Positions 2,997 to 64,000 of a stretch of 64,000 bases of DNA are shown piece by piece; the first letter of the stretch is position 1, and each line of letters begins with the position of its first letter. Below the pieces are notes generated by a model. It made no database searches. It had not been told where the DNA came from and worked only from the letters and a program-made list of their open reading frames with translations. Made by a program: the position numbers and the translations under genes. This DNA is from Alphaproteobacteria bacterium (lineage in GTDB: Bacteria > Pseudomonadota > Alphaproteobacteria > Rs-D84): contig JAWPOC010000016.1 in NCBI GenBank assembly GCA_033345235.1, positions 69,026 through 133,025 of the forward strand, given 5' to 3'.

Positions 2997-3141
2997 GTCG
3001 GGGTGGTGATGGACACCCAGATGGGGGTCCGACCCGCAGGCAAAAGGCAGACGGGAGTATGCCGGTCCCCCGAAATTTTAACGAAGGGGGATTTGCCCAG
3101 GGGAATGAAGCGCAGCGGAATCAATCCCTCCGCTGTTACCA
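2997..3141 (+). ncRNA. GC-rich structured element of unknown identity that ends in a tRNA-Met-like acceptor/T-loop 3' end (…TCCGCTGTTACCA)
   Basis: About 65% GC in a ~35% GC genome. Several helices are predictable, e.g. CCCCC-N14-GGGGG and CAGCGGA-ATCAATCCC-TCCGCTG. It lies between two terminators. Confidence 0.3.
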
Positions 3142-3145
3142 GAAT
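3123..3145 (+). repeat. direct repeat of the tRNA-Met 3' end (22/23 nt identical to 2936-2958)
   Basis: AATCCCTCCGCTGTTACCAGAAT versus AATCCCTCCGCTGCTACCAGAAT in the tRNA. The identity extends 4 nt past the CCA. Confidence 0.7.
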
Positions 3146-4767: not shown

Positions 4768-5319
4768 ATGAAAAAAATAGAAAGTGTTCAAGAATTTGTA
4801 GAAAAATTAGATGCTGCGAAAAAGGTTAATCCAAAGGATTTATCCAGTGACCAAGATTTAACAATCGCAATAATGAACTTGATTTCTATTGAAGAACATT
4901 TAATGTTTTCTGGTGCAAAAACAGGTAAACACGAATTTTATGACTTGATAAACCAAGTTCGTGATATGCGTAAAAATGCGATGCTGAAAATAATCCCTGC
5001 ATACGAAGGCGAAGTTTGGTGCATTTCAAAACATCTGTTGGCTGCATCTATGCGCGTTTTCGAAGTCGGTACAAAAGCACTGGCGTCGGGCGATAAAAAA
5101 ACAGCATATGATTTATTCGATCAATCTTATGAATTATATTGTATGTTTTGGGGCTTGAATATGGGTGTTTTAACCGCAGAAAAAGCAACCTCAAAAAAAG
5201 CAAAAGAAACTAAATCTGCGCAACCTGTCGCCAAAGAAAAATCTGAACCCGCTGCAAAATCTGGAATGTCAAAGTTAAAAAGCTGGGTTAAGAATGCCGT
5301 TAACTGTTGCATAGAGTAA
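4768..5319 (+). CDS. hypothetical protein with a Lys/Ala-rich C-terminal tail
   Basis: ORF with RBS AAAGGAATATAGATG. No recognisable domain. Confidence 0.4.
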   Translation: MKKIESVQEFVEKLDAAKKVNPKDLSSDQDLTIAIMNLISIEEHLMFSGAKTGKHEFYDLINQVRDMRKNAMLKIIPAYEGEVWCISKHLLAASMRVFEVGTKALASGDKKTAYDLFDQSYELYCMFWGLNMGVLTAEKATSKKAKETKSAQPVAKEKSEPAAKSGMSKLKSWVKNAVNCCIE

Positions 5320-5325
5320 AATCAA

Positions 5326-5428
5326 TTATAATAAATTATCTAAAAGCGATGCCGGCAGCTCATGTACGTTTTGTACACTACACTGCCGGCATCACTTTTA
5401 TCTAAATTATTCTAATTGATTTTTTTAT
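5326..5428 (+). repeat. hairpin-loop repeat element, copy A1 (subfamily 1)
   Basis: Hairpin 5341-5400: arm TAAAAGCGATGCCGGCAG, loop CTCATGTACGTTTTGTACACTACA, arm CTGCCGGCATCACTTTTA. Conserved tail TCTAAATTATTCTAATTGATTTTTTTAT. Confidence 0.8.
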
Positions 5429-5435
5429 GGCGGAT

Positions 5436-5538
5436 AATAAATTATCTAAAACCAATACCGGCAGCTCATGTACGTTTTGTACACTACACTGCCGGCATCA
5501 CTTTTATCTAAATTATTCTAATTGATTTTTTTATATGT
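5436..5538 (+). repeat. hairpin-loop repeat element, copy A2 (tandem duplicate of A1 with 3 arm mismatches)
   Basis: Same loop and right arm as A1. The left arm is ACCAATACCGGCAG. Confidence 0.8.
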
Positions 5539-20763: not shown

Positions 20764-21315
20764 ATGAAAATATTGGTTGCGTTATTTTTAAGTGTGTTGT
20801 CCGTCGGGGCATATGCAAATGATTCAGAAAGTGGCGGGTCTTTGGTTCAAGCAGTCAAAGCACGTTTGACTTGTGAAGATATGTCTGCGCGTTTGAAAGA
20901 ATTGACTGCATTAGAAGATCCACAAGATTATGACTTAGAAGAAATAGAACAATTGAAAGCGGACTATCGACGTAGCTGTGTAAAGATTTCAAAAAAACGC
21001 AGAAGTTCTGTGGCCAAGAATCAGCCTGTTGTCGCCGATGTTACAACAGATGTTGTCGCTGATTCAGCAGAGGTTGCAGAAGAACCTGTGAAAGAAGAAA
21101 TCACAACTGTTACAGAAACGGAAACAGAAGTTGTTGTTTCAGAAGCAGACTTGGTTGCCCAAGAATTAGAAAATCTGGATGCAGGTTTGTGTAATGACGG
21201 CAGTAAACCAAATCAATTTGGTTGCTGTTCAGGTGAAGTTTATAAAGATTTGGGTGATTTTGTGTATGCATGCTGTCCAAAGACAGGTGGCGACTGTTTT
21301 CCGCCGATTAGATAA
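20764..21315 (+). CDS. hypothetical secreted acidic protein with a Cys-rich C-terminus
   Basis: Signal peptide MKILVALFLSVLSVGAYA. C-terminus GLCNDGSKPNQFGCCSGEVYKDLGDFVYACCPKTGGDCFPPIR. Confidence 0.45.
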   Translation: MKILVALFLSVLSVGAYANDSESGGSLVQAVKARLTCEDMSARLKELTALEDPQDYDLEEIEQLKADYRRSCVKISKKRRSSVAKNQPVVADVTTDVVADSAEVAEEPVKEEITTVTETETEVVVSEADLVAQELENLDAGLCNDGSKPNQFGCCSGEVYKDLGDFVYACCPKTGGDCFPPIR

Positions 21316-21340
21316 AAATCCCCAAAATGGGGATTTTTTT
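21312..21340. terminator. bidirectional terminator (TCCCC-N4-GGGGA type)
   Basis: AAAAATCCCCAAAATGGGGATTTTTTT. Confidence 0.6.
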
Positions 21341-25741: not shown

Positions 25742-28238
25742 TAACATATTTTATGCAACTAATCCTGCCAAGATGCTGGATGCACTGTGGAAAATTATTT
25801 CAGAATCCACAGTTGATATGCGCGAAATCTTGATTTTTTTACCCAGCAGGCGCGCAGTTAGAACAGTTGAAAAATTAATCGCTGAAAAATCGGGAGGATG
25901 TGCTTTATTGCCTGATTTAGTACCCTTGGGCGAAGGGGCAGATGATGATTATGATGATATGGAATTGCGGCCTGATATTATTCCTGATGTGGAACGTGTG
26001 GTGGTATTGGCAAAGTTGTTGGCCGCAGATGCAAATGTTGGAAATTTAACAACTGCGTTGCCAATAGCGCATGATTTAGTGCGTATGCAAGATTATTTGG
26101 AAAACGAAGGTGTTGACGCGACAACAATAAACTGGGGCGATTTAGTTGATGAAAAATATGCAAATCATTTTCAAAACAAAGCAAAAATTTTAAATATATT
26201 GTCTGAATTTATGCCACATTATATGCAGGGCAGGTTAACCACAACACAAAATAGAAATAATGATATTCGTGCGTGGATAAAAAAACTGGAACAATATAAG
26301 TTGGTTGTTGTGTGTGGCTCAACAGCCAGTGTGCCAGCAACAGCAGATTTAATGATGGCCGTTGCACGTTTGTCGTATGGTCGAATTATTTTGTCTGGGA
26401 AAATTGATGGGCGTGTGGATGATTTTGAATTAGATACAAATCCGTATAATTCTGAATATAAATTCTTGAAAGGTTTAGGCGTCGCGTTCACAGATGTCTT
26501 GCCGATAGATGTTGGAATGTCCGCAATTGATTTTATGAATTATGCATTCGGAAATGACTGTGGTGGCGCAGATGTAAATACAGATTTATCACATTGCCAT
26601 TTAATAGAATGTCCGCGTGAATCTGTCGAAGCAGCAGCTGTCGCACAAATTGCAAAACGGGCAATTGATGAAAATAAATCAGTGTTAGTTATTACTCCGG
26701 ACGCGGCCGGAAATCAGCGTATACAAACAGAATTGAATGCAATTGGAATAAAAGCAGACTTTTCAGGCGGAATGTCAGGCACAATGACCAATTTTGGTCG
26801 CGCGTTATTAAATTTATTCGATTTATGGATCGATTCAAATAGTTGTGTGTTTGATAAAATATACGCTAAAACAGAGTTCAATTTATTTAATACTGTTGCA
26901 CAAATTATAGATGAATATACAGACTGTTTTTCACCACAATTCGTGTTAGAAGATAATGATACTGTACAAGTTTTAATCGCGATAAAAAATATGTCTGATG
27001 CATTAATGGCGGCAGATGTTCAGTTGTCTTTGTCGCAAGCGCGAACATTTATTGCAGATGCGATGAAGTCTGTGTCTGTACGTGCGCAAATGGATACAAA
27101 TGCACCAGTTGTTGTGTTGGGAACAATTGAATCACGTATGCAAACAGCAGATGTTGTTATCCTGACAGGATTAAACGAAGGTATGTTCCCAGCGCGTGGA
27201 TATGAAAATGCATGGCTGCCTAAAAATATCGCAAAACAAATAGGATTGCCTGCACCAGATAGAAAGGTTTCTTTGCAGGCGTTGGACTTTATGAATTTAT
27301 CATGCGGCAAGGATGTTTACTGGTTGCGCAGCGTTATATCTGGGGGGGTGCAAACAACAGAATCTAGGTTCTTGTCCAGAATTATCGCAAGAAAAGCAGT
27401 TATAGATAAAAATTATGGAAACATCATTTTAAATGATGTTATAGCGCGTGATAATGTGCAAACGCACAGTTTGGATTATTCAGCACCTGTGCCACCAAAT
27501 GATTGGTCGGACGTTTATGTGACAGAGTTAGATTATTTAATTCATAATCCATATGCTTTTTATGTAAAGCATATTTTGAAATTAAAAGTTATGGACGATT
27601 ATTGGGTGCTGCCAGATGCGCGGCATTTTGGAATACTGGTGCATGATGTAATTGAAAACGCCACAGATTGGAACCCAAATGTTTTGGTTGCCCAGATGGA
27701 TGCACGTGCAATGGAATTGCTGGGACGTGGAAATGTGATATTTCATTTCTGGCATAAAAGGTTTTTAGAAATTGCGCCGGTCATCGCAAATGAATTATCT
27801 AAAATTCACAACGGTCGTGCCGAGATTTCCGGAAGTATAAAAATTGCAGGACGAAATGTACGTGCGCGGGCTGACTTGGTTTGGGATGGTGGGGTCTTGG
27901 ATATTAAAACAGGAACTGCGCCAAATAAAAATCAATTAGTACAAGGAAATGCACCGCAATTGCCGTTAGAGGCTTTGATGTTACAAAGTGGCGGATTTAA
28001 AATAAAAACAACAGGTGTGTCTGGTGCGCCAATAATGAAATTTTTACAATTGAAAAACAATGATACGCGTATCATAGAATGTGATTCTGAAACAACCCAG
28101 ATGATGATAAATGGTGCGGTCGCCAAAGTAACAGAATTATTTAATATGTATTCTGCAGGTGCTGCGCCATATGAATATCACGAAACAAGTGATGCAAAAT
28201 ATCGGCAATATGATGACTTAGCCAGAGTAAAAGATTAA
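25728..28238 (+). CDS. AddB-like PD-(D/E)XK nuclease family protein (RecB-like nuclease domain at the C-terminus)
   Basis: C-terminal …DLVWDGGVLDIKTG… resembles the AddB/RecB nuclease motif. No addA-like helicase gene is adjacent. Confidence 0.5.
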   Translation: MVSNNNIFYATNPAKMLDALWKIISESTVDMREILIFLPSRRAVRTVEKLIAEKSGGCALLPDLVPLGEGADDDYDDMELRPDIIPDVERVVVLAKLLAADANVGNLTTALPIAHDLVRMQDYLENEGVDATTINWGDLVDEKYANHFQNKAKILNILSEFMPHYMQGRLTTTQNRNNDIRAWIKKLEQYKLVVVCGSTASVPATADLMMAVARLSYGRIILSGKIDGRVDDFELDTNPYNSEYKFLKGLGVAFTDVLPIDVGMSAIDFMNYAFGNDCGGADVNTDLSHCHLIECPRESVEAAAVAQIAKRAIDENKSVLVITPDAAGNQRIQTELNAIGIKADFSGGMSGTMTNFGRALLNLFDLWIDSNSCVFDKIYAKTEFNLFNTVAQIIDEYTDCFSPQFVLEDNDTVQVLIAIKNMSDALMAADVQLSLSQARTFIADAMKSVSVRAQMDTNAPVVVLGTIESRMQTADVVILTGLNEGMFPARGYENAWLPKNIAKQIGLPAPDRKVSLQALDFMNLSCGKDVYWLRSVISGGVQTTESRFLSRIIARKAVIDKNYGNIILNDVIARDNVQTHSLDYSAPVPPNDWSDVYVTELDYLIHNPYAFYVKHILKLKVMDDYWVLPDARHFGILVHDVIENATDWNPNVLVAQMDARAMELLGRGNVIFHFWHKRFLEIAPVIANELSKIHNGRAEISGSIKIAGRNVRARADLVWDGGVLDIKTGTAPNKNQLVQGNAPQLPLEALMLQSGGFKIKTTGVSGAPIMKFLQLKNNDTRIIECDSETTQMMINGAVAKVTELFNMYSAGAAPYEYHETSDAKYRQYDDLARVKD

Positions 28239-28266
28239 AAAAATTCCCCAAACGGGGAACTTTTTT
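28238..28266. terminator. bidirectional terminator (TCCCC-N4-GGGGA type)
   Basis: AAAAAAATTCCCCAAACGGGGAACTTTTTTT. Confidence 0.6.
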
Positions 28267-32644: not shown

Positions 32645-33361
32645 ATGAGTGGACACAGTAAATGGCATAACATTCAACACAAAAAAGGCGCGGCAGACGC
32701 TGCACGCAGTGGTTTGTTTACAAAATTGGCACGTGAAATTACTATGGCGGCCAAATTAGGCGATAAAAATCCAGATAATAACCCAAGACTTCGCTTGGCA
32801 ATATTGACAGCACGTAAAAATTCAATGCCAAATGATAATATCAAACGCGCAATTGAAAAAGCGTCTGGTGCAAATACAGAAAGCTACGAAGCAGTTAGAT
32901 ACGAAGGTTATGGCCCAGGGGCGGTTCCTGTTATCGTAGAGGCGTTGACTGATAATCCTCGTCGTACTGTGCCAGAAATTCGTAACATCTTTGGTAAAAA
33001 TGGCGGAAATATGGGTGAAGAAGGCTCTGTTGTATTTATGTTTACACGTGCAGGGCAAATTATGTACCCAGCTTCAATCGGTAAAACCGAAGATGAAATG
33101 ATGGAAATTATTATGGAAGCCAATGCAGACAACTTGGAAACATCCGAAGAAGGTTTTATCATCACAACAAAACCAGAAGATTTTGTTAATGCACAAAAAT
33201 ATCTGGCAGATGTTTTAGGTGAACCAGAACAGGCAGAATTGACTTGGTTGCCAAATATGCCAATGGACTTGGATGATGAAGCGTATGCAAAACTAGAAAA
33301 ACTGGTTGATGCATTGGATGCAAATGATGATGTGCAGAAGGTGTTCACAGCCGCTGCATAA
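32645..33361 (+). CDS. YebC/PmpR family DNA-binding transcriptional regulator
   Basis: MSGHSKWHNIQHKKGAADAARS…, the family-typical N-terminus. Confidence 0.9.
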   Translation: MSGHSKWHNIQHKKGAADAARSGLFTKLAREITMAAKLGDKNPDNNPRLRLAILTARKNSMPNDNIKRAIEKASGANTESYEAVRYEGYGPGAVPVIVEALTDNPRRTVPEIRNIFGKNGGNMGEEGSVVFMFTRAGQIMYPASIGKTEDEMMEIIMEANADNLETSEEGFIITTKPEDFVNAQKYLADVLGEPEQAELTWLPNMPMDLDDEAYAKLEKLVDALDANDDVQKVFTAAA

Positions 33362-33376
33362 TAAAAATTAAATCTA

Positions 33377-33481
33377 ATGGCATATCTACGAACAAACCCG
33401 ACATCTCATGTAACTTCTGTACACTACGATGTCGGGTTTGTGCGTATCTATACCATTATCTTTAATTTTTTCGCTAATCAC
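33377..33481 (+). repeat. hairpin-loop repeat element, copy B1 (subfamily 2)
   Basis: Hairpin 33389-33444: arm CGAACAAACCCGACATC, loop TCATGTAACTTCTGTACACTAC, arm GATGTCGGGTTTGTGCG. Tail TATCTATACCATTATCTTTAATTTTTTCGCTAATCAC. Confidence 0.8.
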
Positions 33482-33499
33482 GGGGTGTGTGGATTTAAG

Positions 33500-33594
33500 A
33501 CATCTCATGTAACTTCTGTATACTACGATGTCGGGTTTGTGCGTATCTATACCATTATCTTTAATTTTTTCGCTAATCACGTGCGGGGTGTGTT
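33500..33594 (+). repeat. hairpin-loop repeat element, copy B2 (tandem copy, 5' truncated; left arm reduced to ACATC)
   Basis: Loop TCATGTAACTTCTGTATACTAC, right arm and tail identical to B1. Confidence 0.75.
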
Positions 33595-34308: not shown

Positions 34309-34316
34309 TTTTTATT

Positions 34317-34345
34317 TATAAAAAAATCCCCAATCGGGGATTTTT
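34317..34345. terminator. bidirectional terminator (TCCCC-N4-GGGGA type)
   Basis: AAAAAAATCCCCAATCGGGGATTTTTG. Confidence 0.6.
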
Positions 34346-40361: not shown

Positions 40362-41381
40362 ATGCCCGCAATTTCAATTATTATTCCAATGTATGGTGTT
40401 GAAAAATATTTGCGCAGATGTTTGGATAGTGTACAAAATCAGACTTTTAAAGATTGGCAGGCAATTTGTGTGAATGACGGCAGTCCTGATAAATCTGGCG
40501 AAATCGCACGCGAATACGCTGCACGTGACAAGCGGTTTGTTGTGGTCGATAAAGAAAACGGTGGTTTATCTGATGCGCGTAATGCCGCAATGCCATATGT
40601 CACAGGTGATTATATTTTATATCTGGATAGTGATGATTTTATTCATCCACAAACAATGGAAATTGCGTATTCTTTGGCTTTGCGTGATGGGTCAGATATT
40701 GTGTCTTTTACATACGACAGAATTTATCGCCCCCAATTGATGGTGCGTCATAAATTAGGTTTGGATACAGATAATGTTGTGCCAAGGCGTATGCATAAAA
40801 AATATGACCTTGCAAAAATTAAAACACGTGTCACAGATGATGTATACGAATATGCAACAGAACGCACACATAATAAATTTAATCCAAAACGCAAGTGGCT
40901 AATTAAACACTGTCAGGTTTGGAAAAATTTATATAAACGTGAATTAATCGAAGATATTCCTTTTATCAAGGGAATATTATTCGAAGACTTCCCTTGGTGG
41001 AGTCGCGTTATGTTGCGTAATCCACGTGTTACAATCGCGCCACTGCCGCTGTATTTCTATATTCCAAATTTTGGTGGAATAGTGTTGGGGGCAAAGCAAC
41101 TGCGTATTATGAAAAGTTTGTGCACTGGTATCGAAAGTGCGTATGACGCGTATAAAGAATCTGCAACTGAATATCAGATGAAACGATGGAATGCTGAATT
41201 CAAGTGGTACTTTATCAAATGGGCGTTTAGAAAGATAAAATATTTGGATAATGATGCAGATGTTGCAGATGCTCGCGAATGCTTTAGACATTTAAATGAA
41301 ATAGGCGCGTTGTCTAATCCGCCATATGCGTGGGCAGAAAAAATTCGTGAAAGTATCTTGGATTTTATCAAAGGAAAATAA
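40362..41381 (+). CDS. family 2 glycosyltransferase
   Basis: ISIIIPMYGVEKYLRRCLDSVQNQTFKDWQAICVNDGSPD…LYLDSDD (GT-A fold, DxD). Confidence 0.8.
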   Translation: MPAISIIIPMYGVEKYLRRCLDSVQNQTFKDWQAICVNDGSPDKSGEIAREYAARDKRFVVVDKENGGLSDARNAAMPYVTGDYILYLDSDDFIHPQTMEIAYSLALRDGSDIVSFTYDRIYRPQLMVRHKLGLDTDNVVPRRMHKKYDLAKIKTRVTDDVYEYATERTHNKFNPKRKWLIKHCQVWKNLYKRELIEDIPFIKGILFEDFPWWSRVMLRNPRVTIAPLPLYFYIPNFGGIVLGAKQLRIMKSLCTGIESAYDAYKESATEYQMKRWNAEFKWYFIKWAFRKIKYLDNDADVADARECFRHLNEIGALSNPPYAWAEKIRESILDFIKGK

Positions 41382-41384
41382 CCG

Positions 41385-42401
41385 ATGACTGAAAAAACTA
41401 TTATATCAATAATTATCCCTGTGTATAACGTTGAACGGTTTTTACGCAGATGCTTAGATAGTGTGTTGCGTCAGACTTTTCAATACTGGCAGGCAATATG
41501 TGTTAATGATGGCAGCACAGACGGCAGTCTTGAAATATTACAAGAATACGCTGCAAAAGATTCTAGATTCAAAGTGATAAATAAAAAAAACGGTGGATTG
41601 TCTGATGCGCGTAATACCGGTATGAAATATGCCAAAGGCGAATATGTTTTATTCTTAGACAGTGATGATTTTATTCATGACCAAACGCTGGAATTGATGT
41701 TCGGAACGATAAAACAAAAACGTGCAGATATGGCGTTGTTTGACTTTGATTTGCCTTTTTACAAAGCGTTGCGTGCAAAGTTAGATAAACACAAAGATAT
41801 ATATGATTTAGTTCCAACCAGCAGAAGAAGGGTTTATAAATTTAGCAGATTTTGTAAGTATGTAACGAAAAATATTTTGATGCATTGTACCGAACGTAAT
41901 CGTACTTTGTTTATACGACGCCCTGTACGCAGACATTGTTATCCTGTGTTGGCGTTGTATAGCAAAAATTTAATCCAAGATATTCATTTTATCAAAGGAA
42001 TTATTATCGAAGATTTTCCATGGTGGGTTGCAGTATTGCACAAAAAACCAAAGACTGTTATGACTAAATTGCCACTGTATTTTTATATTCCAAATGCGAC
42101 TTCGATATTAAACAGTTCTAAATCTTTGTTTATGGCAAAGTCAATCGCAACAGGCTTAAAGGCATCGTTTGATTTGTATTCAACTGGTGTAAGTAAGTCA
42201 GAATATAAACATTTTAACTATCATTTCTTGTGGCCTTTTACAATTACAATGATGCGAAAAATTCGGGACTTGGATAATGATGCAGATATTGCAGTCGCAA
42301 AAGAATTTGTTTCCGATTTATATAATCATGGTGTTTTTGATATGCCATGTGGCGCGCGTGCCAGAAAATATAAACGCAAAATTTTAAAATTTATAAGTTA
42401 A
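41385..42401 (+). CDS. family 2 glycosyltransferase (tandem paralog of the preceding gene)
   Basis: ISIIIPVYNVERFLRRCLDSVLRQTFQYWQAICVNDGSTD…LFLDSDD. About 45% identity to the upstream gene over the N-terminal domain. Confidence 0.8.
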   Translation: MTEKTIISIIIPVYNVERFLRRCLDSVLRQTFQYWQAICVNDGSTDGSLEILQEYAAKDSRFKVINKKNGGLSDARNTGMKYAKGEYVLFLDSDDFIHDQTLELMFGTIKQKRADMALFDFDLPFYKALRAKLDKHKDIYDLVPTSRRRVYKFSRFCKYVTKNILMHCTERNRTLFIRRPVRRHCYPVLALYSKNLIQDIHFIKGIIIEDFPWWVAVLHKKPKTVMTKLPLYFYIPNATSILNSSKSLFMAKSIATGLKASFDLYSTGVSKSEYKHFNYHFLWPFTITMMRKIRDLDNDADIAVAKEFVSDLYNHGVFDMPCGARARKYKRKILKFIS

Positions 42402-45387: not shown

Positions 45388-45418
45388 ATTAAAATCCCCC
45401 AATCGGGGGATTTTTTTA
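45388..45418. terminator. bidirectional terminator (TCCCCC-N4-GGGGGA type)
   Basis: AAAATCCCCCAATCGGGGGATTTTTTT. Confidence 0.6.
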
Positions 45419-47941: not shown

Positions 47942-48475
47942 ATGTCGCATAATATCAGATTTGTACATTCGCAAATAGGTAAGGCTTTACAAGCGTTTAA
48001 AAATATCGCACATGCAGATTTGGTAAAATCTTGGGGGCGGTTTTCACAATCAGAACGTTGCCAAATCGCACGTGCGATGTTACTGATGGAAAATGCGGCC
48101 AGAAAGCCTGCAAACTATTTTTCATACGCAAAAACATATGCTACTTGGCAAACCAGAGCAAACAAATTTAAACAAGGCTTTGGTTTAACAGATGATGCGG
48201 TTGCGATGGATGCTGTTACAAATCCAGCCGAAGAATTTTTTGAAAAGGTCAAAATTGTTTGGATGAATCCAGACTTAGCACAGAAATATAAAAAATTCTG
48301 TGAATTGGTATATCTGTGGGAATATGCACGTAAGTCTGAACAATCAAGTGATGTTGTTGAAAAGTATGTAGATGCAATATTGTTTGTTGTGGCTGAGGTA
48401 TGTGCATATCAATTGCAGATACTAAACCAGAAAAATGCGTTCTTTCAAAAAATAAAAATGTATATATGCCGTTAA
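47942..48475 (+). CDS. hypothetical protein, paralog 2 of a tandem pair
   Basis: …ARAMLLMENAARKPANYFS…WQTRANKF…KFCELVYLWEY. Confidence 0.45.
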   Translation: MSHNIRFVHSQIGKALQAFKNIAHADLVKSWGRFSQSERCQIARAMLLMENAARKPANYFSYAKTYATWQTRANKFKQGFGLTDDAVAMDAVTNPAEEFFEKVKIVWMNPDLAQKYKKFCELVYLWEYARKSEQSSDVVEKYVDAILFVVAEVCAYQLQILNQKNAFFQKIKMYICR

Positions 48476-48476
48476 A

Positions 48477-48503
48477 AAAAATCCCCGTTTGGGGATTTTT
48501 TTA
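48477..48503. terminator. bidirectional terminator (TCCCC-N4-GGGGA type), probably the original serS terminator
   Basis: AAAAAAAATCCCCGTTTGGGGATTTTTTT, immediately followed by the displaced 42-bp copy of the serS 3' end. Confidence 0.6.
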
Positions 48504-48507
48504 TTGG

Positions 48508-49050
48508 TGTTTACCGCCGATTTTTGTGCGACCACCCATCAATGGTTGTTAATCCCCTTCGTCTGGCGAAGGGGTGCCCGTTAGGGCGGGGTAGTGGTTT
48601 TTTGTTGTTTCTTCAATTGATGAAATAACTTTATCTATTTGGAATTTTACGTCATGGTCGTCAAAATGTATTACAGACAGACCAAGCGATTTTAAATATT
48701 CATCTCGTTTTTTATCATATGTATATTTATTATCGTGCGAACAACCGTCGATTTCTATGACCAGCTTTAATTTTGGACAGTAAAAATCAACAATATAGTT
48801 CCCTATGATGCGTTGTCTATCAAAATCAAGTCCATTCGTACGTTTGTTTTTTAGTAAGTTCCACAAAAGAACTTCGGATAGGGTAGATTTTTTACGTAAT
48901 TCACGTGCGTTTTTTCGTAAATCTTTATTTGATGGTAATTTTATTGCCATAATTTACCACTACCCCGTCCGCATTCGCGTCCACCCCTTCGCTTAGCGAA
49001 GGGGATTATGTTTACCGCCGATTTTTGTGCGACCACCCATCAATGGTTGT
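48508..49050. mobile_element. small selfish cassette: 42-bp direct repeats (serS 3' end) flanking ~50-bp GC-rich inverted repeats and a DUF559 endonuclease-like gene
   Basis: DR 48508-48549 equals DR 49009-49050 (TGTTTACCGCCGATTTTTGTGCGACCACCCATCAATGGTTGT, 42/42). IR 48551-48598 AATCCCCTTCGTCTGGCGAAGGGGTGCCCGTTAGGGCGGGGTAGTGGT is matched by the reverse complement of 48956-49007. The DUF559 ORF lies between them. Confidence 0.6.
48549..48950 (-). CDS. DUF559 domain protein (Vsr-like/PD-(D/E)XK endonuclease fold)
   Basis: …LRKKSTLSEVLLWNLLKNKRTNGLDFDRQRIIGNYIVDFYCPKLKLVIEIDGCSHD… matches the DUF559 consensus. The last 15 codons are encoded by the left inverted repeat. Confidence 0.75.
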   Translation of the reverse strand: MAIKLPSNKDLRKNARELRKKSTLSEVLLWNLLKNKRTNGLDFDRQRIIGNYIVDFYCPKLKLVIEIDGCSHDNKYTYDKKRDEYLKSLGLSVIHFDDHDVKFQIDKVISSIEETTKNHYPALTGTPSPDEGD

Positions 49051-50282
49051 AACGCTTTTGGAATATTTACAGAACCGTCTGGGTTTTGGTGGTTTTCAAT
49101 AACAGGTACAATTGCACGCGGCAAGGCAATACCTGTATTATTTAATGTCGCACAGAATTGCATGCTGCCATCCGACGCGCGGAAACGTGTGTTTGTTCTG
49201 CGGGCTTGGAATTGACCAATCGATGAACAAGAACCTAGTTCACGATATGTATTTTCGCTGGGGAACCATGCTTCGACGTCATGCATTTTAATCTTGTTAA
49301 AGCCCATGTCGCCAGTGCATGCCATAATCACGCGATATGGTAATTCCAAATCTTCCATAATTTCGCACAAGTTATTTAACAAATGTTCGTGCATTTCATC
49401 AGATTGTTCAGGTGTGCAATATATATACTGTTCAACCTTGTTAAATTGATGTATACGTACAATTCCGCGGGTGTCGCGGCCGGCGGCACCTGCTTCTTTG
49501 CGGAAACATGGGGAATAGCCAGCGTATTTAATTGGTAAATCTTTTTCGTTCAAGACTTCATCACTGTGCAGAGAATTCAAGATAATTTCCGCAGTGCCTG
49601 CCAAACAACGGTCTGTATCAGTCAGCATAAATACATCGTTGTTCATAATAGATAAGTCTTTGCCAGTAAAATGTCCTGCATTAAATATTGTTTGTGGTTT
49701 TGTAATTGATGGGCAATTTACAAATGTAAATCCTTTGCTGATTAATTTTTGAATAACGTATGTTTGTATCGCCAGTTCTAATTCTGCGGCTTCGCCAAAC
49801 AGGGCGTATGTACGTGTGCCGCAAATTGATGCGATTTTTTCTGGCTTCCACCAGCCGTTCATTTCCAATAAATCCCATTGTGGGCGTGGTGTAAAGTCAA
49901 ATTCACGTGGTGTCCCAACGCGGCGGACTTCGACATTTTCAGAATCATCACGACCAATTGGCGTGTCTGCAGATGGAATTTGCGGAACGCTGTGTAATAA
50001 TTCAGACAGTTTTTCTTCTTTGTCGCTAAGTTCTGCCATATCAGCTGCAATTTCCGCATTGATTTCTTTGGATTTTGCAATCAGGGGCGCTTTGTCGGCA
50101 GCAGTTGGTATTTCACGTGTGATTTTATTCTTTTCTGCTGTTTTTGATTGCGTGATTGTTTTAAGTTCACGAACGCGTTTGTCTAGTTCTAAAATTTCGT
50201 CTGTGTAATCTGTATAACCTTTTAATTCACAGGCTTTTTTTACGGCGTCCGGATTTTCGCGAATAAATTTTATATCTAGCAT
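48993..50282 (-). CDS. serS: serine--tRNA ligase
   Basis: N-terminal coiled-coil arm plus class II core. The C-terminus now reads …GGKHNPLR*, where NPLR* is supplied by the cassette inverted repeat. The displaced copy reads …GGKHQ*. Confidence 0.95.
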   Translation of the reverse strand: MLDIKFIRENPDAVKKACELKGYTDYTDEILELDKRVRELKTITQSKTAEKNKITREIPTAADKAPLIAKSKEINAEIAADMAELSDKEEKLSELLHSVPQIPSADTPIGRDDSENVEVRRVGTPREFDFTPRPQWDLLEMNGWWKPEKIASICGTRTYALFGEAAELELAIQTYVIQKLISKGFTFVNCPSITKPQTIFNAGHFTGKDLSIMNNDVFMLTDTDRCLAGTAEIILNSLHSDEVLNEKDLPIKYAGYSPCFRKEAGAAGRDTRGIVRIHQFNKVEQYIYCTPEQSDEMHEHLLNNLCEIMEDLELPYRVIMACTGDMGFNKIKMHDVEAWFPSENTYRELGSCSSIGQFQARRTNTRFRASDGSMQFCATLNNTGIALPRAIVPVIENHQNPDGSVNIPKALQPLMGGRTKIGGKHNPLR

Positions 50283-50531: not shown

Positions 50532-51431
50532 ATGTATGATATTATTATCTTAGGTTCTGGCCCTGCGGGCTTAACAGCGGCATTGTATGCGGCGCGCGCA
50601 AATAAAAAGACAATTGTGTTGGGTGGAAGTCGTCTGGGTGGCCAGATGGCAGGTATCGCAACATTGGAAAATTATCCGGGCTTTGAAGGCAGTGGTTTAG
50701 AGTTAGCAGAGTTTATGAAAAATCAAGCAGAACACTTTGGCGCGACTGTGAATTTTGTGTCGGCAAAAAATATATCTGGCGACGCAGAAACAGGATTTGT
50801 GGTCTCTGCAGATGACGGTAAAGAATATACAGGGCGTGCAGTAATTATTGCCACAGGTGCGTCACCACGTAAACTGGAAATCGAAGGGGCGCGCGAATTG
50901 ATGGGGCGTGGTGTGTCTTATTGTGCAACGTGTGATGGATTCTTTTACAGTGGTAAAACTGTTATGGTTATGGGCGGCGGAAACAGCGCGCTGAATGATG
51001 CGTTGTATTTGGCTGATTTGGCCAAGACAGTTAAAATTGTTTATCGCAAGGCCGAATTTACGCGGGCAGAGGCTGTATTACGTGAACGTGTCGCAGCACG
51101 TGAAAATATTGAATGCTTGTTCAATACAGATTTGGTAAAAATTGAAGAAAAACCAGATTCAACAGATGGTGAATTGATTGTTACAACAACGACCGGTGAT
51201 AAAATAGTTGTTGACGGTTTGTTTGTCGCAATTGGACACGAAGCCAACACAGATTATTTAACCGAAGATGTTAAACGTGATGCAATGGGGCGTCTTGCAC
51301 CATCTGCATTGCCAGCGGGTATGTTTGTTGCAGGTGATGTGCACAGCGATATCAAAATGCAGATTGCAACAGCTGTTGGTACAGGGTGTACGGCTGGGAT
51401 GGATGCCATCGCATTCCTTAACAAAAATTAA
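50532..51431 (+). CDS. trxB: thioredoxin-disulfide reductase
   Basis: FAD motif GSGPAG, redox-active CATCDGFFY, and NADPH motif GGGNSA. Confidence 0.9.
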   Translation: MYDIIILGSGPAGLTAALYAARANKKTIVLGGSRLGGQMAGIATLENYPGFEGSGLELAEFMKNQAEHFGATVNFVSAKNISGDAETGFVVSADDGKEYTGRAVIIATGASPRKLEIEGARELMGRGVSYCATCDGFFYSGKTVMVMGGGNSALNDALYLADLAKTVKIVYRKAEFTRAEAVLRERVAARENIECLFNTDLVKIEEKPDSTDGELIVTTTTGDKIVVDGLFVAIGHEANTDYLTEDVKRDAMGRLAPSALPAGMFVAGDVHSDIKMQIATAVGTGCTAGMDAIAFLNKN

Positions 51432-51548
51432 ATATAACAATTCATCTGTGGACGGTCCCGATAACTCATGTAACATTTGTACACTACGTTATCGGGACCG
51501 TTCCACATCTAAACTGTTCTATTTAATTTTCCGCTAATCACTACCCAC
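51432..51548 (+). repeat. hairpin-loop repeat element, copy C (subfamily 2)
   Basis: Hairpin 51447-51507: arm TGTGGACGGTCCCGATAAC, loop TCATGTAACATTTGTACACTAC, arm GTTATCGGGACCGTTCCACA. Tail …CTATTTAATTTTCCGCTAATCAC…. Confidence 0.8.
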
Positions 51549-52056: not shown

Positions 52057-52920
52057 TTATCTTGTACCTTTGTTCATCCCAAAAGGATGGTGCTTTTCAA
52101 CTGTTTCTTTTAACTGTTCTGGCATAACGTGCGTGTATATCTGGGTTGTAGATATATCTTCGTGCCCCAACATTGTTTGTATCGCACGCAAGTTCGCACC
52201 GCCAGCCAGTAAGTGTGACGCAAATGAATGACGCAGTACGTGTGGACTGACGCGATTCGGATCAATGCCGGACAGTATAGCACATTTTTTTAAAATTTTG
52301 AAAAAACCATCACGTGTTATGTGACCGGAATTTCCACGTGATGGAAATACGTATTTAGAATCAATGTCACCACGTGCATCCAGCCACTTGTTCAGTGCAT
52401 GTATGGCGGTGGCGTGCATTGGGATTAATCTTTCTTTGGCGCCTTTGCCATGTATTAATAATTTATCCCCCAGTACCCCAGATAATGGTAATTCACATAA
52501 TTCTGATACGCGCAGCCCAGATGCATACAACAATTCAATCATCGCGCGCAGACGAAGTGCTGTTTTTATGTCGCCTGCGGATGATATTAACAGTTCGATT
52601 TCTGTGGGTGATAAAAATTTAGGTAACTTGCGTTCGCGTTTCGGTAATTCCAGATTTTGCGCAGGATTTGTTTCGATTATTTTTTCCAACATCAGAAATT
52701 TATAAAAACCACGTAATGCAGACGCTTTGCGGGCAATAGATGATGGCTTTTCAGATAGTTCTGATAAATATTGTTGTACAGACGCGTTCGTCGCGCTAAT
52801 TAAGCCACCATCAAGCGCAGCGTCTGCTAGAATTAAATCAGACTTGTAGCTGGATAGTGTTCTTTCGCTGCAGCCTTTTTCAGCAGACAGGGCTTCTAAG
52901 AAAATATCTATATAGTTCAC
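52057..52920 (-). CDS. xerD: tyrosine recombinase XerD-type
   Basis: Catalytic motifs …RLRAMIELLYASGLRVSELCEL… and HVLRHSFASHLL…LGHEDISTTQIYTHV. The N-terminus FLEALSAEKGCSERTLSSYKSDL is closer to XerD than to XerC. Confidence 0.75.
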   Translation of the reverse strand: MNYIDIFLEALSAEKGCSERTLSSYKSDLILADAALDGGLISATNASVQQYLSELSEKPSSIARKASALRGFYKFLMLEKIIETNPAQNLELPKRERKLPKFLSPTEIELLISSAGDIKTALRLRAMIELLYASGLRVSELCELPLSGVLGDKLLIHGKGAKERLIPMHATAIHALNKWLDARGDIDSKYVFPSRGNSGHITRDGFFKILKKCAILSGIDPNRVSPHVLRHSFASHLLAGGANLRAIQTMLGHEDISTTQIYTHVMPEQLKETVEKHHPFGMNKGTR

Positions 52921-61587: not shown

Positions 61588-63861
61588 ATGACAAGGAAGA
61601 AAAAAACATCAAGAATTTTGCCCGCTGGAATTTCTGGCGCGTTGAACAGTTTGGTTGCCCGTATCTTTGGTGGGTGTGTTTGTGTGCTGGGGGTGTGGGC
61701 GTTGATCGCTTTGTTTATGTATAACCCAAATCTGGATGGGTTCGCTGTCGCCAGTAATTTCGGCAGTCAATCTGCAATGGGAAATGTTGTTGGGGCATTG
61801 CGTTATGCAATTGGGTTTGTGCCAACGTTATTTGTGTTTTTATGTGCTGCCAGATGGGGCGCGTTAAAACTGTTGGGGATGGAAATAGGGGCGTCACCAG
61901 AATATAATTTCTTGCGCGGATTTATCGCTGTTTGTGTCGGGGCAATTGGGTTTGGTTTGCTTGTTCCAATGGGAACGTATGGCGGTATGTTTGGCGCGAT
62001 TGCATATATGGACGTTGTTGGTGTTGTTGGTAAAGTTGCACCGGTCTTGGGTGTTTTATTTGTTGCTGTATTTTTTGTTTTAGCAGGTACTTTGTTACAT
62101 ATCAGTTGGCGTCATTTGCGTTGGGCAATGGGAATAATTATTCGTTGGCTGCGCTGGATTGGCAGTGCATTCCATCTGATTAAACCTGTGGCAGACGCCC
62201 CACAAGAAGATGATGAAGAATACACAGATGATGACACAGAAGACGAAGCCGATGCAGAAGAAGAAAAGCCAGAAAAACCCAAACGTAGTTTACTGGGACG
62301 TCGCGCGTCAAACAAGGCGGCTGTGGTTGCAACTGTGTCTGCGGGGCGTTCACGTCGTGCGGCGGCTGCATATCAATTGCCAGACCCGAAATTCTTGGAA
62401 AAGTCCAGTTTTAGTAAATGTGCCGTAACACCTGATTTGAAACAGAATGCGCGTAATATGGAAACTCATTTTGCGGAATATGGTGTGTATGGGCGCGTTG
62501 TTGGTATAAAGCCTGGGCCAATTGTGACGTTATATGAATTCGAACCAGATACAGGTATGCGTATTGCAAAAATTACAGAAACAGTCAAAGATATGACCCG
62601 CGCAATGGCAACAGAAAATATTCGTATCGCGCATATTCCACGCACGAACTTTGTTGGTGTTGAAATGGTTAATATCAAGCGTCAAACAGTGCGTTTTCGT
62701 GGGCTGGTTGAAAATCCGATTTTCATAGAATCAAAGTACAAAATTCCATTGGCGTTGGGTGTTGATATTGGCGGAAATCCAATGTATTTTGACTTGGCCA
62801 AGATGCCACATATGTTAATCGCAGGGCGTACTGGGTCTGGTAAATCCGTATTTGTACAATCTATTATTACATCGATTGTGTATCACTTTACGCCGGACAA
62901 GTGCAAGTTGATGATTATCGACCCAAAAGGTGTTGACTTTGGGTTCTGGGATGATATTCCACACTTGATTACGCCAATTGTAAAACTGGATCCTGCTGCG
63001 GCGGTAAATGCGCTGAAGTGGGCAGTGCGCGAAATGGAAGAAAGATATAAACAATTACAAGTCTTAAATGCGCGTAATATCGAAAGTTATAATGAAATTG
63101 CGGCGCAAAAACGTGAAAGCGGTGAAAAGATTACAAAACAGGTCGCGGTTGGCACAGACCCAGAAACAGGCGAATTATTATTTGAAACCCAAGAAGTTGA
63201 CTTATCCGATATGTCATACATTGTCATCGTCATAGACGAGGTGGCCGACCTGATGTCTTTGGCGCGCAAAGATGTTGAAGCCTGTGTTCAACGTATTGCG
63301 CAAAAGGCGCGTGCGGCTGGGATTCATCTTGTTATGGCGACCCAGCGTCCAGACGCAACAACAATCACAGGTGTTATCAAGGCAAACTTCCCAACACGTG
63401 TTTCGTTCCAAGCGCGCAGCCGTATTGACAGTGCAACCACACTGGGCGAAGGTGGTGCAGAACAGTTATTGTCTTGTGGCGATATGCTGTTTAGCGAGGC
63501 TGGCCGCGTCCCTGTGCGAATTCATGGCGCATTCATAGACGATGGCGAATTGAACAGAATTGGTGAATTCTTGCGCGCCCAAGGCGAACCAGAATACGCA
63601 GACGGTGTAACGGATTCCGAAGGCGACGGTGGCAGCGATGTTGATGTTTCTGGTATCCCAGGAATGGGTGGTGGTGATAAAGATGGCGACCTGTATGCCC
63701 GCGCCAAAGAGTGTGTTTTACGTGATAAAAAGCCGACAATTTCTTATATTCAGCGTCGTTTACAAATTGGCTATAACAAGGCTGCGGGCTTTATGGAACG
63801 TATGGAAGAAGAGGGTATTGTGTCTGGGCCGGACGCCAATAACAAACGTCACATCCTATAA
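61588..63861 (+). CDS. ftsK: DNA translocase FtsK
   Basis: N-terminal TM region, acidic linker, motor domain with Walker A GRTGSGKS and a C-terminal gamma winged-helix. Confidence 0.95.
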   Translation: MTRKKKTSRILPAGISGALNSLVARIFGGCVCVLGVWALIALFMYNPNLDGFAVASNFGSQSAMGNVVGALRYAIGFVPTLFVFLCAARWGALKLLGMEIGASPEYNFLRGFIAVCVGAIGFGLLVPMGTYGGMFGAIAYMDVVGVVGKVAPVLGVLFVAVFFVLAGTLLHISWRHLRWAMGIIIRWLRWIGSAFHLIKPVADAPQEDDEEYTDDDTEDEADAEEEKPEKPKRSLLGRRASNKAAVVATVSAGRSRRAAAAYQLPDPKFLEKSSFSKCAVTPDLKQNARNMETHFAEYGVYGRVVGIKPGPIVTLYEFEPDTGMRIAKITETVKDMTRAMATENIRIAHIPRTNFVGVEMVNIKRQTVRFRGLVENPIFIESKYKIPLALGVDIGGNPMYFDLAKMPHMLIAGRTGSGKSVFVQSIITSIVYHFTPDKCKLMIIDPKGVDFGFWDDIPHLITPIVKLDPAAAVNALKWAVREMEERYKQLQVLNARNIESYNEIAAQKRESGEKITKQVAVGTDPETGELLFETQEVDLSDMSYIVIVIDEVADLMSLARKDVEACVQRIAQKARAAGIHLVMATQRPDATTITGVIKANFPTRVSFQARSRIDSATTLGEGGAEQLLSCGDMLFSEAGRVPVRIHGAFIDDGELNRIGEFLRAQGEPEYADGVTDSEGDGGSDVDVSGIPGMGGGDKDGDLYARAKECVLRDKKPTISYIQRRLQIGYNKAAGFMERMEEEGIVSGPDANNKRHIL

Positions 63862-63974
63862 ATAAATTATAATAACTTATCTACACGCGGTGCCGGCAGT
63901 TCATGTAGCGTTTGTACACTACACTGCCGGCACTGCGTGTATCTAAATCATTCTAATTTATTTCTGTTTATCGG
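63862..63974 (+). repeat. hairpin-loop repeat element, copy D (subfamily 1)
   Basis: Hairpin 63882-63941: arm TACACGCGGTGCCGGCAG, loop TTCATGTAGCGTTTGTACACTACA, arm CTGCCGGCACTGCGTGTA. Tail TCTAAATCATTCTAATTTATTTCTG. Confidence 0.8.
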
Positions 63975-64000
63975 ATGATAATTCATCTACAAGTGGTGTC
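63975..64000 (+). repeat. start of a further hairpin-loop repeat copy, cut by the window edge
   Basis: ATAATTCATCTACAAGTGGTGTC resembles the 5' flank and left-arm start of copy C (ACAATTCATCTGTGGACGG). Confidence 0.4.

Follow-up and report, generated by a model that had tools for sequence, protein, structure and literature searches.

Background

The repetitive extragenic palindromes (REPs) of bacteria lie mostly downstream of coding regions, between unidirectional and convergent open reading frames (ORFs), and occur also within operons (PMC3733652), and structured mRNAs that carry them are substrates of RNase R and PNPase (PMC12320835). Here, we analyzed a family of hairpin repeats that sits at four gene ends in a 64,000-nt stretch of an alphaproteobacterial genome of the order Rs-D84 (forward strand of contig JAWPOC010000016.1, assembly GCA_033345235.1, positions 69,026 to 133,025; this whole stretch is called the window below). 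A previous reading of the letters, made without database searches (the sequence-only reading), had described hairpins with an invariant loop and unrelated but complementary arms, and the candidate explanations that it put forward, i.e., a structured 3'-UTR or terminator-associated RNA family, a miniature inverted-repeat transposable element (MITE) recognised by a transposase, or a protein-binding hairpin regulon, were reasonable. The family belongs with the REPs and the transcribed MITE-like hairpins, and its mechanism is inferred. Our favoured reading, to which we give about an even chance, is that these are clade-specific REP/MITE-like intergenic palindromic repeats that occupy the position of an intrinsic terminator and have a tip that is read by a putative factor.

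With the REP, BIME, and REPIN sequences the family shares an abundance of intergenic palindromes, a placement mostly downstream of genes, between unidirectional or convergent ones and also within operons, clusters or arrays, a GTAG/CTAC next to a hairpin, and subfamilies with complementary stem changes (PMC3733652). However, REPs measure 20–40 bp and have a conserved 6–13 bp stem with a short or variable loop, whereas here a conserved tip of 22–24 nt is carried on interchangeable stems of 17–19 bp, so the design is the reverse of that of classical REPs, with a fixed tip and swappable stems. Furthermore, the CTAC is part of the loop of a ~106-nt hairpin and does not stand at its outer end, and the arrays run head-to-tail rather than as inverted dimers. 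The earlier statement that the family is unlike REPs was only half right: its genomic behaviour is REP-like, and its loop has the CTAC/GTAG beside a mini-hairpin.

The Correia elements of Neisseria and the ERIC/IRU sequences of enterobacteria are likewise long imperfect palindromes (~100–150 bp) with many copies and mosaic subtypes; they are co-transcribed with their neighbours, and their RNA hairpins affect termination, processing, and mRNA stability. They have no sequence relation to the element, in which no TA-type target duplication was seen and which has a conserved tip with cassette-like arms as well as a far stricter position (stop codon touching or inside the stem) and orientation (103 to 6). 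Bidirectional intrinsic terminators resemble it in position, orientation, the series of A tract, GC-rich hairpin, and T tract, and in being interchangeable with it at orthologous sites, but the element is four times longer, repeated, and recombining, has a conserved tip and mismatch boxes, places a weak stem of ~24 nt before the T run, and is found within the rpsM-rpsK pair. The Rickettsia palindromic elements also persist in reduced alphaproteobacterial genomes, although they are unrelated in sequence and often lie in frame within genes, unlike the strictly extragenic copies described here, which stand at stop codons. Integron attC sites are similar as structure-defined hairpins with strand-specific unpaired features, arrays, and a replication-related orientation; yet they conserve the outer R''/L''...L'/R' boxes around a variable centre, where the element conserves the centre, and they flank ORF cassettes and need an adjacent IntI, while the units here contain no ORFs and have no integrase beside their arrays. 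CRISPR repeats differ as well, since the units are palindromic and 76–106 nt long and the sequence between tips is itself repeated elsewhere and does not consist of unique spacers. On unit length, palindromy, reversed architecture, and the lack of cassette ORFs we therefore agree with the sequence-only reading that the family represents neither CRISPR repeats nor attC sites. The family is unusual in its conserved tip on cassette-like stems, in its strict stop-codon placement, and in its double polarity.

Hairpin units in the window

The window was searched on both strands with the pattern TCATGTA-N5-TGTACACTAC (TGTAYACTAC), allowing at most three mismatches. Six matches were obtained, all on the + strand (5360, 5466, 33406, 33505, 51466, and 63901; the one at 33505 is the tip variant TGTATACTAC), against a mean of 0.17 in the shuffled window, and none of 100 shuffles reached six. 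The full units are single hairpins of ~104–108 nt with fold energies of –41 to –48 kcal/mol (z = –9 to –12 relative to shuffles). A real structured repeat family is present, as had been proposed. What had been described as a ~100-bp repeat with flanks is one such hairpin, of which the flanks are a part. The copies are spread over four sites (A, B, C, and D), and the count of at least seven given earlier amounts to the six motif matches, among which B2 is not a full hairpin, and the start of a seventh unit at 63977 that is cut by the window end. A covariance model scored at every position of the window gave no additional copies and favoured the + over the – strand by ~50 bits, which makes the hairpin element clearly polar. 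The arm sequences cited earlier were correct, complementary, and different between sites as described; the arms of A and D are related and have TGCCGGCAG in common.

Site A follows an ORF of 183 aa without a Pfam family (4768..5319, + strand), the stop codon of which (5317–5319) touches the stem of unit A1. This full hairpin (5319..5422, +) has an outer stem in which AAATCAATTA (5319–5328) pairs with TAATTGATTT (5413–5422), ATCT boxes at 5338–5341 and 5400–5403, arms at 5342–5359 and 5382–5399, and its tip at 5360–5381. A tandem follow-on unit, A2 (5434..5528, +; arms 5448–5465 and 5488–5505, tip 5466–5487), has a shortened left flank, GATAATAAATTATCTA, and lacks the outermost stem. At site B, downstream of a gene of the YebC/TACO1 family (Pfam; 32645..33361, +), the full hairpin B1 (33363..33470, +) starts 1 nt past the yebC stop codon (33359–33361) and is of flank type 2, AATCTAATGGCATATCTA / TATCTATACCATTATCTTT, with two ATCT/ATCT boxes, arms at 33388–33405 and 33428–33445, and the tip at 33406–33427. 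It is followed by a linker (33472..33498, +) made of CGCTAATCAC and a G/T-rich stretch, of a class that also trails many copies in other species, and by the 5'-truncated follow-on unit B2 (33499..33570, +), in which the left arm is only 6 nt long (GACATC), the tip (33505–33526) has the one change seen in TGTATACTAC, and the right arm and right flank are complete.

Unit C (51424..51530, +; arms 51448–51465 and 51488–51506, tip 51466–51487) is a full hairpin whose outer stem includes the stop codon (51429–51431) of a gene for a thioredoxin-reductase-like flavoprotein, TrxB (Pfam; 50532..51431, +), and which is followed by the tail CCGCTAATCAC (51531–51541). At site D, the stop codon (63859–63861) of ftsK (Pfam; 61588..63861, +) overlaps the first two bases of the outer stem of the full hairpin D1 (63860..63963, +; arms 63883–63900 and 63923–63940, tip 63901–63922). 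The follow-on unit D2 begins with a shortened left flank, GATAATTCATCTA, and the start of its arm (63977..64000, +) before the window ends, and its junction, TTTATCGGAT(G)ATAATTCATCTA, recurs in two other loci (L044 and L118). All window copies are on the + strand, and their sites lie directly after stop codons, the outer stem of the full units reaching or containing the upstream stop, in agreement with what had been noted.

Structure of the hairpin and conservation of its tip

The anatomy was read from an alignment of 47 full copies, in which a full unit of this family (family 1) is a ~106-nt hairpin with, from the outside to the tip, an AT-rich outer stem (A-rich/T-rich), ATCT boxes, a GC-rich arm of 17–19 bp, and the tip. 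The outer stem AAATAAATTA/TAATTTATTT covaries with AAATTAAAT/ATTTAATTT, and the middle stem exists in a few alternative versions (type 1 ATAATAATTC/AATCATTCT and type 2 CTAATGGCAT/ATACCATTAT). A symmetric mismatch box, 5'-ATCT versus 5'-ATCT, is near-invariant (TC opposite TC in 106 of 112 copies) and is accompanied in the type 2 flank by a second ATCT/ATCT box 12 bp farther out. The tip, closed by a C-G (81) or a T-A (24) pair, consists of an internal loop of TCA versus CTAC, a TGTA/TACA mini-stem, and a 7-nt loop, so that the whole apical module of 24 nt can be written as Y-TCATGTA-RCKTY-TGTACACTAC-R. Paired cells made up 90.9% of the alignment, compared to 35–43% with partners slid by 1–3 columns, and two-sided changes were present in 31 of the 43 pairs. 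As the mini-stem is invariant, covariation can neither support nor refute it.

Because the loci had been retrieved by their loop sequence, ascertainment bias was checked with 110 copies whose retrieval was independent of their own loop or was based on protein identity. Most loop positions were still ≥ 95% conserved, in support of the sequence-only reading, which had described a conserved loop on unrelated yet complementary arms. The ATCT boxes were as strongly conserved as the loop, and the positions designated N5 proved to be R-C-K-T-Y, mainly in the versions GCGTY and ACTTY, within a closing Y-R pair. Conservation of the CTAC (GTAG on the – strand) ranged from 78 to 97% between positions; this tetranucleotide stands beside the TGTA/TACA mini-hairpin, but within the loop of the large hairpin. 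Two further families of long hairpins with unrelated flanks, both from related MAGs (metagenome-assembled genomes), family 2 (ATCGGTTCGCGTTGCG...CGCAGTCGGCACAAT; L036, L080, L104, and L110) and family 3 (AAAATGATTTCTATGGG...CTCTCATATAAATCATTTT; L035 and L106), are capped by the identical tip, and L047 has a tip-joined chimera of families 1 and 2. Since three hairpin families carry it, the tip is the deepest conserved module.

Distribution

An exact-pattern scan of one genome per species returned at least 120 stretches. Among the matches listed, 105 had family-1 hairpins, 6 (L035, L036, L080, L104, L106, and L110) had family 2 or 3, two of these together with family 1, and 11 were chance matches without a hairpin in unrelated phyla. 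The sequence-only reading was to fail if the motif were confined to the four loci of the window, and the scan found it far beyond them. In 887 kb of sequence, a profile search recovered 190 units, 112 of them full length, in 105 loci among the matches listed. The hosts are MAGs of animal and human gut origin, whose labels read Candidatus Enterousia or else uncultured Alphaproteobacteria or Rickettsiales. Enterousia belongs to the order Rs-D84, with genomes of ~0.75–1.0 Mb (PMC12306168), and the family is found clade-wide in Candidatus Enterousia.

The 80 FtsK loci of other metagenomes (264 kb) contained zero copies, including nine relatives at 58–82% identity; the relatives reached by the metagenome scan with the FtsK C-terminus were at most 82% identical, and all were without the element. 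In the window, only tRNAs passed the Rfam gathering threshold, and a permissive Rfam scan of site B gave only chance matches far below threshold. A phage or plasmid origin was discarded, given that viral contigs yielded one chance match without a hairpin and the plasmid and phage collections none. No published description of the hairpin family was found.

The window has 4 sites with 6–7 units per 64 kb, and by extrapolating this density, a genome would have some 50–60 sites and ~100 units. Enterousia genomes are among the smallest in the animal gut, yet ~1% of their DNA, as extrapolated from the window, would belong to this one repeat family. Such repeats fragment short-read metagenome assemblies of the lineage; we observed MAG contigs ending inside elements in seven loci (L013, L021, L026, L031, L042, L054, and L059) and a scaffold N gap within a tandem pair (L137, 2090–2190). 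At the same time, they are a sensitive marker of the lineage, for which a covariance model (R1) is available to annotate the family, and as they vary between strains with identical flanking proteins, they could serve for strain typing.

Placement at gene ends

In 103 of the 112 full copies, a co-oriented ORF of at least 60 aa has its stop codon abutting or inside the left outer stem, and the TAA of AAATAAAT or AAATTAAAT is often this stop codon. Among these 103, 19 also abut a convergent gene on the right, whereas only 6 of the 112 abut a convergent ORF alone. Three of the six (L024, L117, and L014) look like normal units with only the tip inverted, which was directly seen in L024 and L117 and is probable in L014. 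Tips inverted in otherwise normal flanks were located at ~3515–3536 in L024, at ~5755–5776 in L117, and in one unit of L108 (5095–5116). Inverted tips are expected from recombination between inverted arms, and their rarity (~3 of 112 full copies) suggests that the tip orientation is maintained.

In element-free species, the corresponding position at orthologous gene ends is taken by an ordinary intrinsic terminator, for instance TAA-AAATCCCGCCATTTGGCGGGATTTTT. A convergent ORF end lies within 300 nt at about half of the sites, and in convergent gene pairs the element spans the gap from stop to stop. On either strand, a long hairpin stands between an A tract and a T tract. The outer stem is followed by a T run, and some arm classes also have one after the GC arm itself (TTTTATCT). 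The ordinary terminators of the window (21313–21340, 28238–28265, 34316–34345, 45390–45417, and 48475–48502) have one form, i.e., A run, CCCC, 4 nt, GGGG, and T run, and those at 21313, 28238, 45390, and 48475 touch stop codons. Most of those checked begin at a stop codon or only a few bases from it, showing how densely the 3' ends are arranged in this genome.

The family occupies the terminator place at many housekeeping genes. Besides YebC, TrxB, and FtsK, the upstream genes include EF-P, S13, S11, an aldolase, and SecB, recognised by eye from the translations. They form a mixed set of housekeeping genes with no shared theme, and the idea of a functional regulon was dropped.

Exchange of arms and growth of arrays

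At the threshold used, the arms fall into ~20 classes, the commonest with 28 copies in 27 loci, that recur across loci and species, each with fixed mismatches of its own, while orthologous sites in different species bear different classes. The exchange is visible between strains: where the YebC, TrxB, or 183-aa proteins are 100% identical, the arm class, the flank type, and the number of units vary. Behind the gene for an identical YebC, strains had one unit, two units, remnants, or no element, and together they showed at least five arm classes and two flank types. The trxB sites of L133 and the window are identical through AAAAATTAAAT and from TTTAATTTTCCGCTAATCAC onwards and wholly different in between; one cassette has been cleanly exchanged for another, the breakpoints lying in the outermost stems. 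Behind the 183-aa gene, an additional, new unit stands nearest the stop codon in L139 and L140, and in L139, where the sequence extends farther, the older unit is displaced downstream with a shortened left flank. Chimeric arms, with left and right sides of different classes joined at the loop, occur in L004, L016, L023, and L037.

Arrays consist of 2–5 units of 76–106 nt each, arranged head-to-tail. In the tandem follow-on units the right side is intact and the left side variably truncated, and the linkers are of a few types that are themselves small hairpins (CTAATCAC...GTGATTAG, or CCCC-(T)GCAA-GGGG). At least 16 of 19 arm pairs are Watson-Crick in 70 of 109 stop-proximal units, while 29 of 30 truncated follow-on units have at most 13 arm pairs; hairpin integrity therefore matters at the first position, where the arms stay complementary. 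New units are added on the stop-codon side and older ones decay downstream, and the family is kept diverse by frequent exchange between copies, with whole arm and flank cassettes being swapped in place. RuvA, RuvC, and an AddB-like nuclease are encoded nearby, which means that homologous exchange is available.

The diversity of complementary arms is thus mainly a matter of module exchange, although some stepwise compensation is found inside classes (...CAAC/GTTG... versus ...CAAT/ATTG..., with C·A intermediates as in unit A1). Covariation had been taken as a sign of selection on a folded RNA or single-stranded DNA; we do not retain the complementary arms as evidence of many independent compensatory changes under RNA selection, given the recurring arm classes, the swaps of whole cassettes, and the strand data presented below. 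Similarly, the two subfamilies recognised before are freely recombining modules, namely flank type, arm class, and tail. The direct ATCT boxes had hinted at elements nested in hairpin loops by insertions that duplicate ATCT, an idea that was dropped as the loci contained no "empty" outer hairpins. A role of the loop as target or scar of a larger insertion sequence was rejected too, as no loop had a large insertion and the odd ones were small slips or point variants.

Proposed role and alternative explanations

According to the favoured reading, a unit would be transcribed as the end of the upstream mRNA, where its 3' hairpin would terminate or attenuate transcription and protect the message, acting in both directions between convergent genes. 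The apical module and the ATCT boxes would form a sequence-specific site for a putative factor conserved across the clade. In E. coli, ribosome stalling and trans-translation have been reported for REPs that lie no more than ~15 nt from a stop codon, which is possibly relevant as the stop codon is here often inside the stem. The strict orientation, relative both to the gene and to replication, suggests that the tip has a specific reader and that exchange is an active process. We consider it unlikely, though worth stating, that the tip and ATCT boxes dock a dedicated clade-specific protein, either an RNA-binding factor acting on 50–100 mRNA 3' ends per genome, i.e., a bacterial counterpart of the histone stem-loop/SLBP, or a hairpin-specific nuclease or recombinase that shuffles "terminator cassettes". 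In either version, hairpins in terminator position would be a managed, exchangeable system and not passive repeats.

Several observations weigh against this picture of a sense-strand terminator. The GC-rich arm is separated from the terminal T run by an AU-rich mismatched stem of ~24 nt, and in 5 of 7 species an element is located between rpsM and rpsK, a place where a fully efficient terminator would be hard to accommodate. The arms have 93 G·T and 80 C·A pairs on the sense strand, meaning no G·U excess and no sign of selection for sense-RNA pairing, and the outer stem departs from Watson-Crick pairing nearly always by C·A/A·C (161 cells) or T·C/C·T (139) and seldom by G·T (18). In 108 of 112 copies, the RNA of the antisense strand folds more stably (mean –49.7 versus –38.9 kcal/mol, an average difference of 10.8), because the sense non-Watson-Crick cells are mostly C·A/A·C or T·C/C·T; families 2 and 3 likewise fold better on the antisense strand. 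In our own reading of the motifs, that strand turns the irregularities into G·U wobbles, tandem G·A pairs, and, beside GTAG, a GUA/GA loop. A G·U excess as a mark of sense RNA was discarded, and the G·T surplus of follow-on units was attributed to chance, from the G/T-rich composition of the linkers.

The placement relative to replication adds to these points. The GC skew of the + strand is positive in each 8-kb block of the window (0.07–0.24), even in blocks dominated by – strand genes, so the whole window seems to belong to one replichore, in which the + strand would be the leading one. In all of the window and in 73 of 79 loci, the strand with the loop sense is the G-rich one, and units follow, in sense, genes on this presumably leading strand. 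Within loci, none of 223 opposite-strand gene ends has an element of its own, compared to 10 of 355 same-strand gene ends (P = 0.008). The strand bias relative to GC skew exceeds gene co-orientation and hints at a constraint at the DNA level; it may reflect a replication-linked constraint, or else host genes that are highly expressed and commoner on the leading strand.

The main alternative, although we think it doubtful, is a non-autonomous single-stranded DNA mobile element of the REP/RAYT or IS200/IS605 kind. A HUH (Y1) endonuclease would then recognise the imperfect hairpin on the template of the lagging strand and cleave it at the tip, beside CTAC/GTAG, and the terminator position would be where insertions are tolerated or useful. 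The loop-sense strand, as the G-rich strand, can be taken as the lagging-strand template, on which Y1 transposases act (PMC6006769), and the conserved strand-specific irregularities (TC/TC boxes, C·A mismatches, and the asymmetric TCA/CTAC internal loop), the CTAC/GTAG beside a mini-hairpin as in GTAG-tagged REPs, the loop-joined chimeras (the four named above), the few inverted loops, the one-sided truncation in tandem arrays, and the fast turnover between strains would all fit. However, swap breakpoints lie in the conserved flanks, as in homologous exchange, and not at the tip; the conserved part is the loop, compared to the stem in REPs; and the near-absence of elements after lagging-strand genes in any orientation is unexpected for a purely replication-guided insertion. 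No target duplication, fixed target word, or empty outer hairpin was found in the loci, and zero loops were interrupted by a larger insertion. A tblastn search of ~1 Mb around elements gave no Y1/RAYT match below E = 0.5, a weak negative that covers only ~2% of sites with IS608 TnpA and E. coli RAYT queries. As for MITEs, the outer stems act as inverted repeats, but no duplication was visible when filled and terminator-bearing orthologous sites were compared, and among the loci no larger element with the ends of this hairpin family was found. As the REP literature shows (PMC3733652), the favoured terminator-position repeat and a HUH-type mobile element are not mutually exclusive.

The better fold of the – strand could also mean that the selected structure is on this strand, as RNA or DNA, which we regard as improbable. 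The hairpin would then mainly block transcripts that enter the gene from its 3' end, as a polar terminator or a structured antisense element, or the weak-folding strand would be kept on the lagging-strand template for replication safety. The size and consistency of the fold difference, in families 2 and 3 as in family 1, the convergent ORF ends near about half of the sites, and our reading that on the – strand nearly all irregularities turn into classic, stable non-canonical pairs (tandem G·A pairs in 5'-AGAU/AGAU, G·U wobbles, and the GUA/GA loop beside the mini-stem) speak for it. On the other hand, 84 of 112 copies have no abutting – strand gene and hence no obvious source of a – strand transcript, no promoter evidence was found, and as C-containing mismatches are the most destabilising, selection for a weaker sense hairpin would give the same pattern.

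Finally, it is highly improbable that a site-specific cassette system, comparable to integron attC or the neisserial dRS3/NIME arrays, uses the tips for crossover, with the tip-to-tip unit as the cassette: although array units read as tip, right arm, right flank, linker, and short left arm, and chimeric arms are joined at the tip, first units are nearly always self-complementary and not chimeric, the observed swaps break in the flanks, the tip on inspection has no paired recombinase-binding half-sites, the units have no ORFs, and no dedicated recombinase gene was seen beside arrays, the integrase-family ORF two genes from the trxB site resembling a housekeeping Xer. A DNA uptake sequence was rejected by inference from the fixed orientation, the hairpin-tip position, and the low density.

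Neighbouring features

A DUF559 nuclease was rejected as a partner of the repeats, as its gene was found in only three Enterousia loci (the window, L057, and L128) and not adjacent to elements; a match to the loop pattern in a Bacteroidota DUF559 gene (L033) is coding sequence and was taken as chance. In the window, this gene (48549..48950, – strand; 133 aa with a Vsr-like endonuclease fold) lies beside serS and is bracketed by an exact 42-nt direct repeat (48508–48549 and 49009–49050, 501 nt apart), one copy of which is the 3' end of the seryl-tRNA synthetase gene (48993..50282, –). The region looks like a small cassette inserted at a gene end and duplicating that end. The relative in L057 is 93% identical, and the one in strain L128 (56%) is directly after yebC, the site where other strains bear the hairpin.

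We saw no connection between the repeats and the XerC/D-type tyrosine recombinase gene near the trxB element (52057–52920, –; Pfam, from strain locus L132), which probably encodes the housekeeping dif recombinase. The 3' end of a tRNA-Met gene (2880–2954) is repeated 187 nt downstream (2936–2958 and 3123–3145, 22 of 23 bases), which resembles the att-site duplicate of an integrated element. In addition, two adjacent paralogues (40362–41381 and 41385–42401; 339 and 338 aa) have 76–78% DNA identity over long stretches and represent a tandem duplication.

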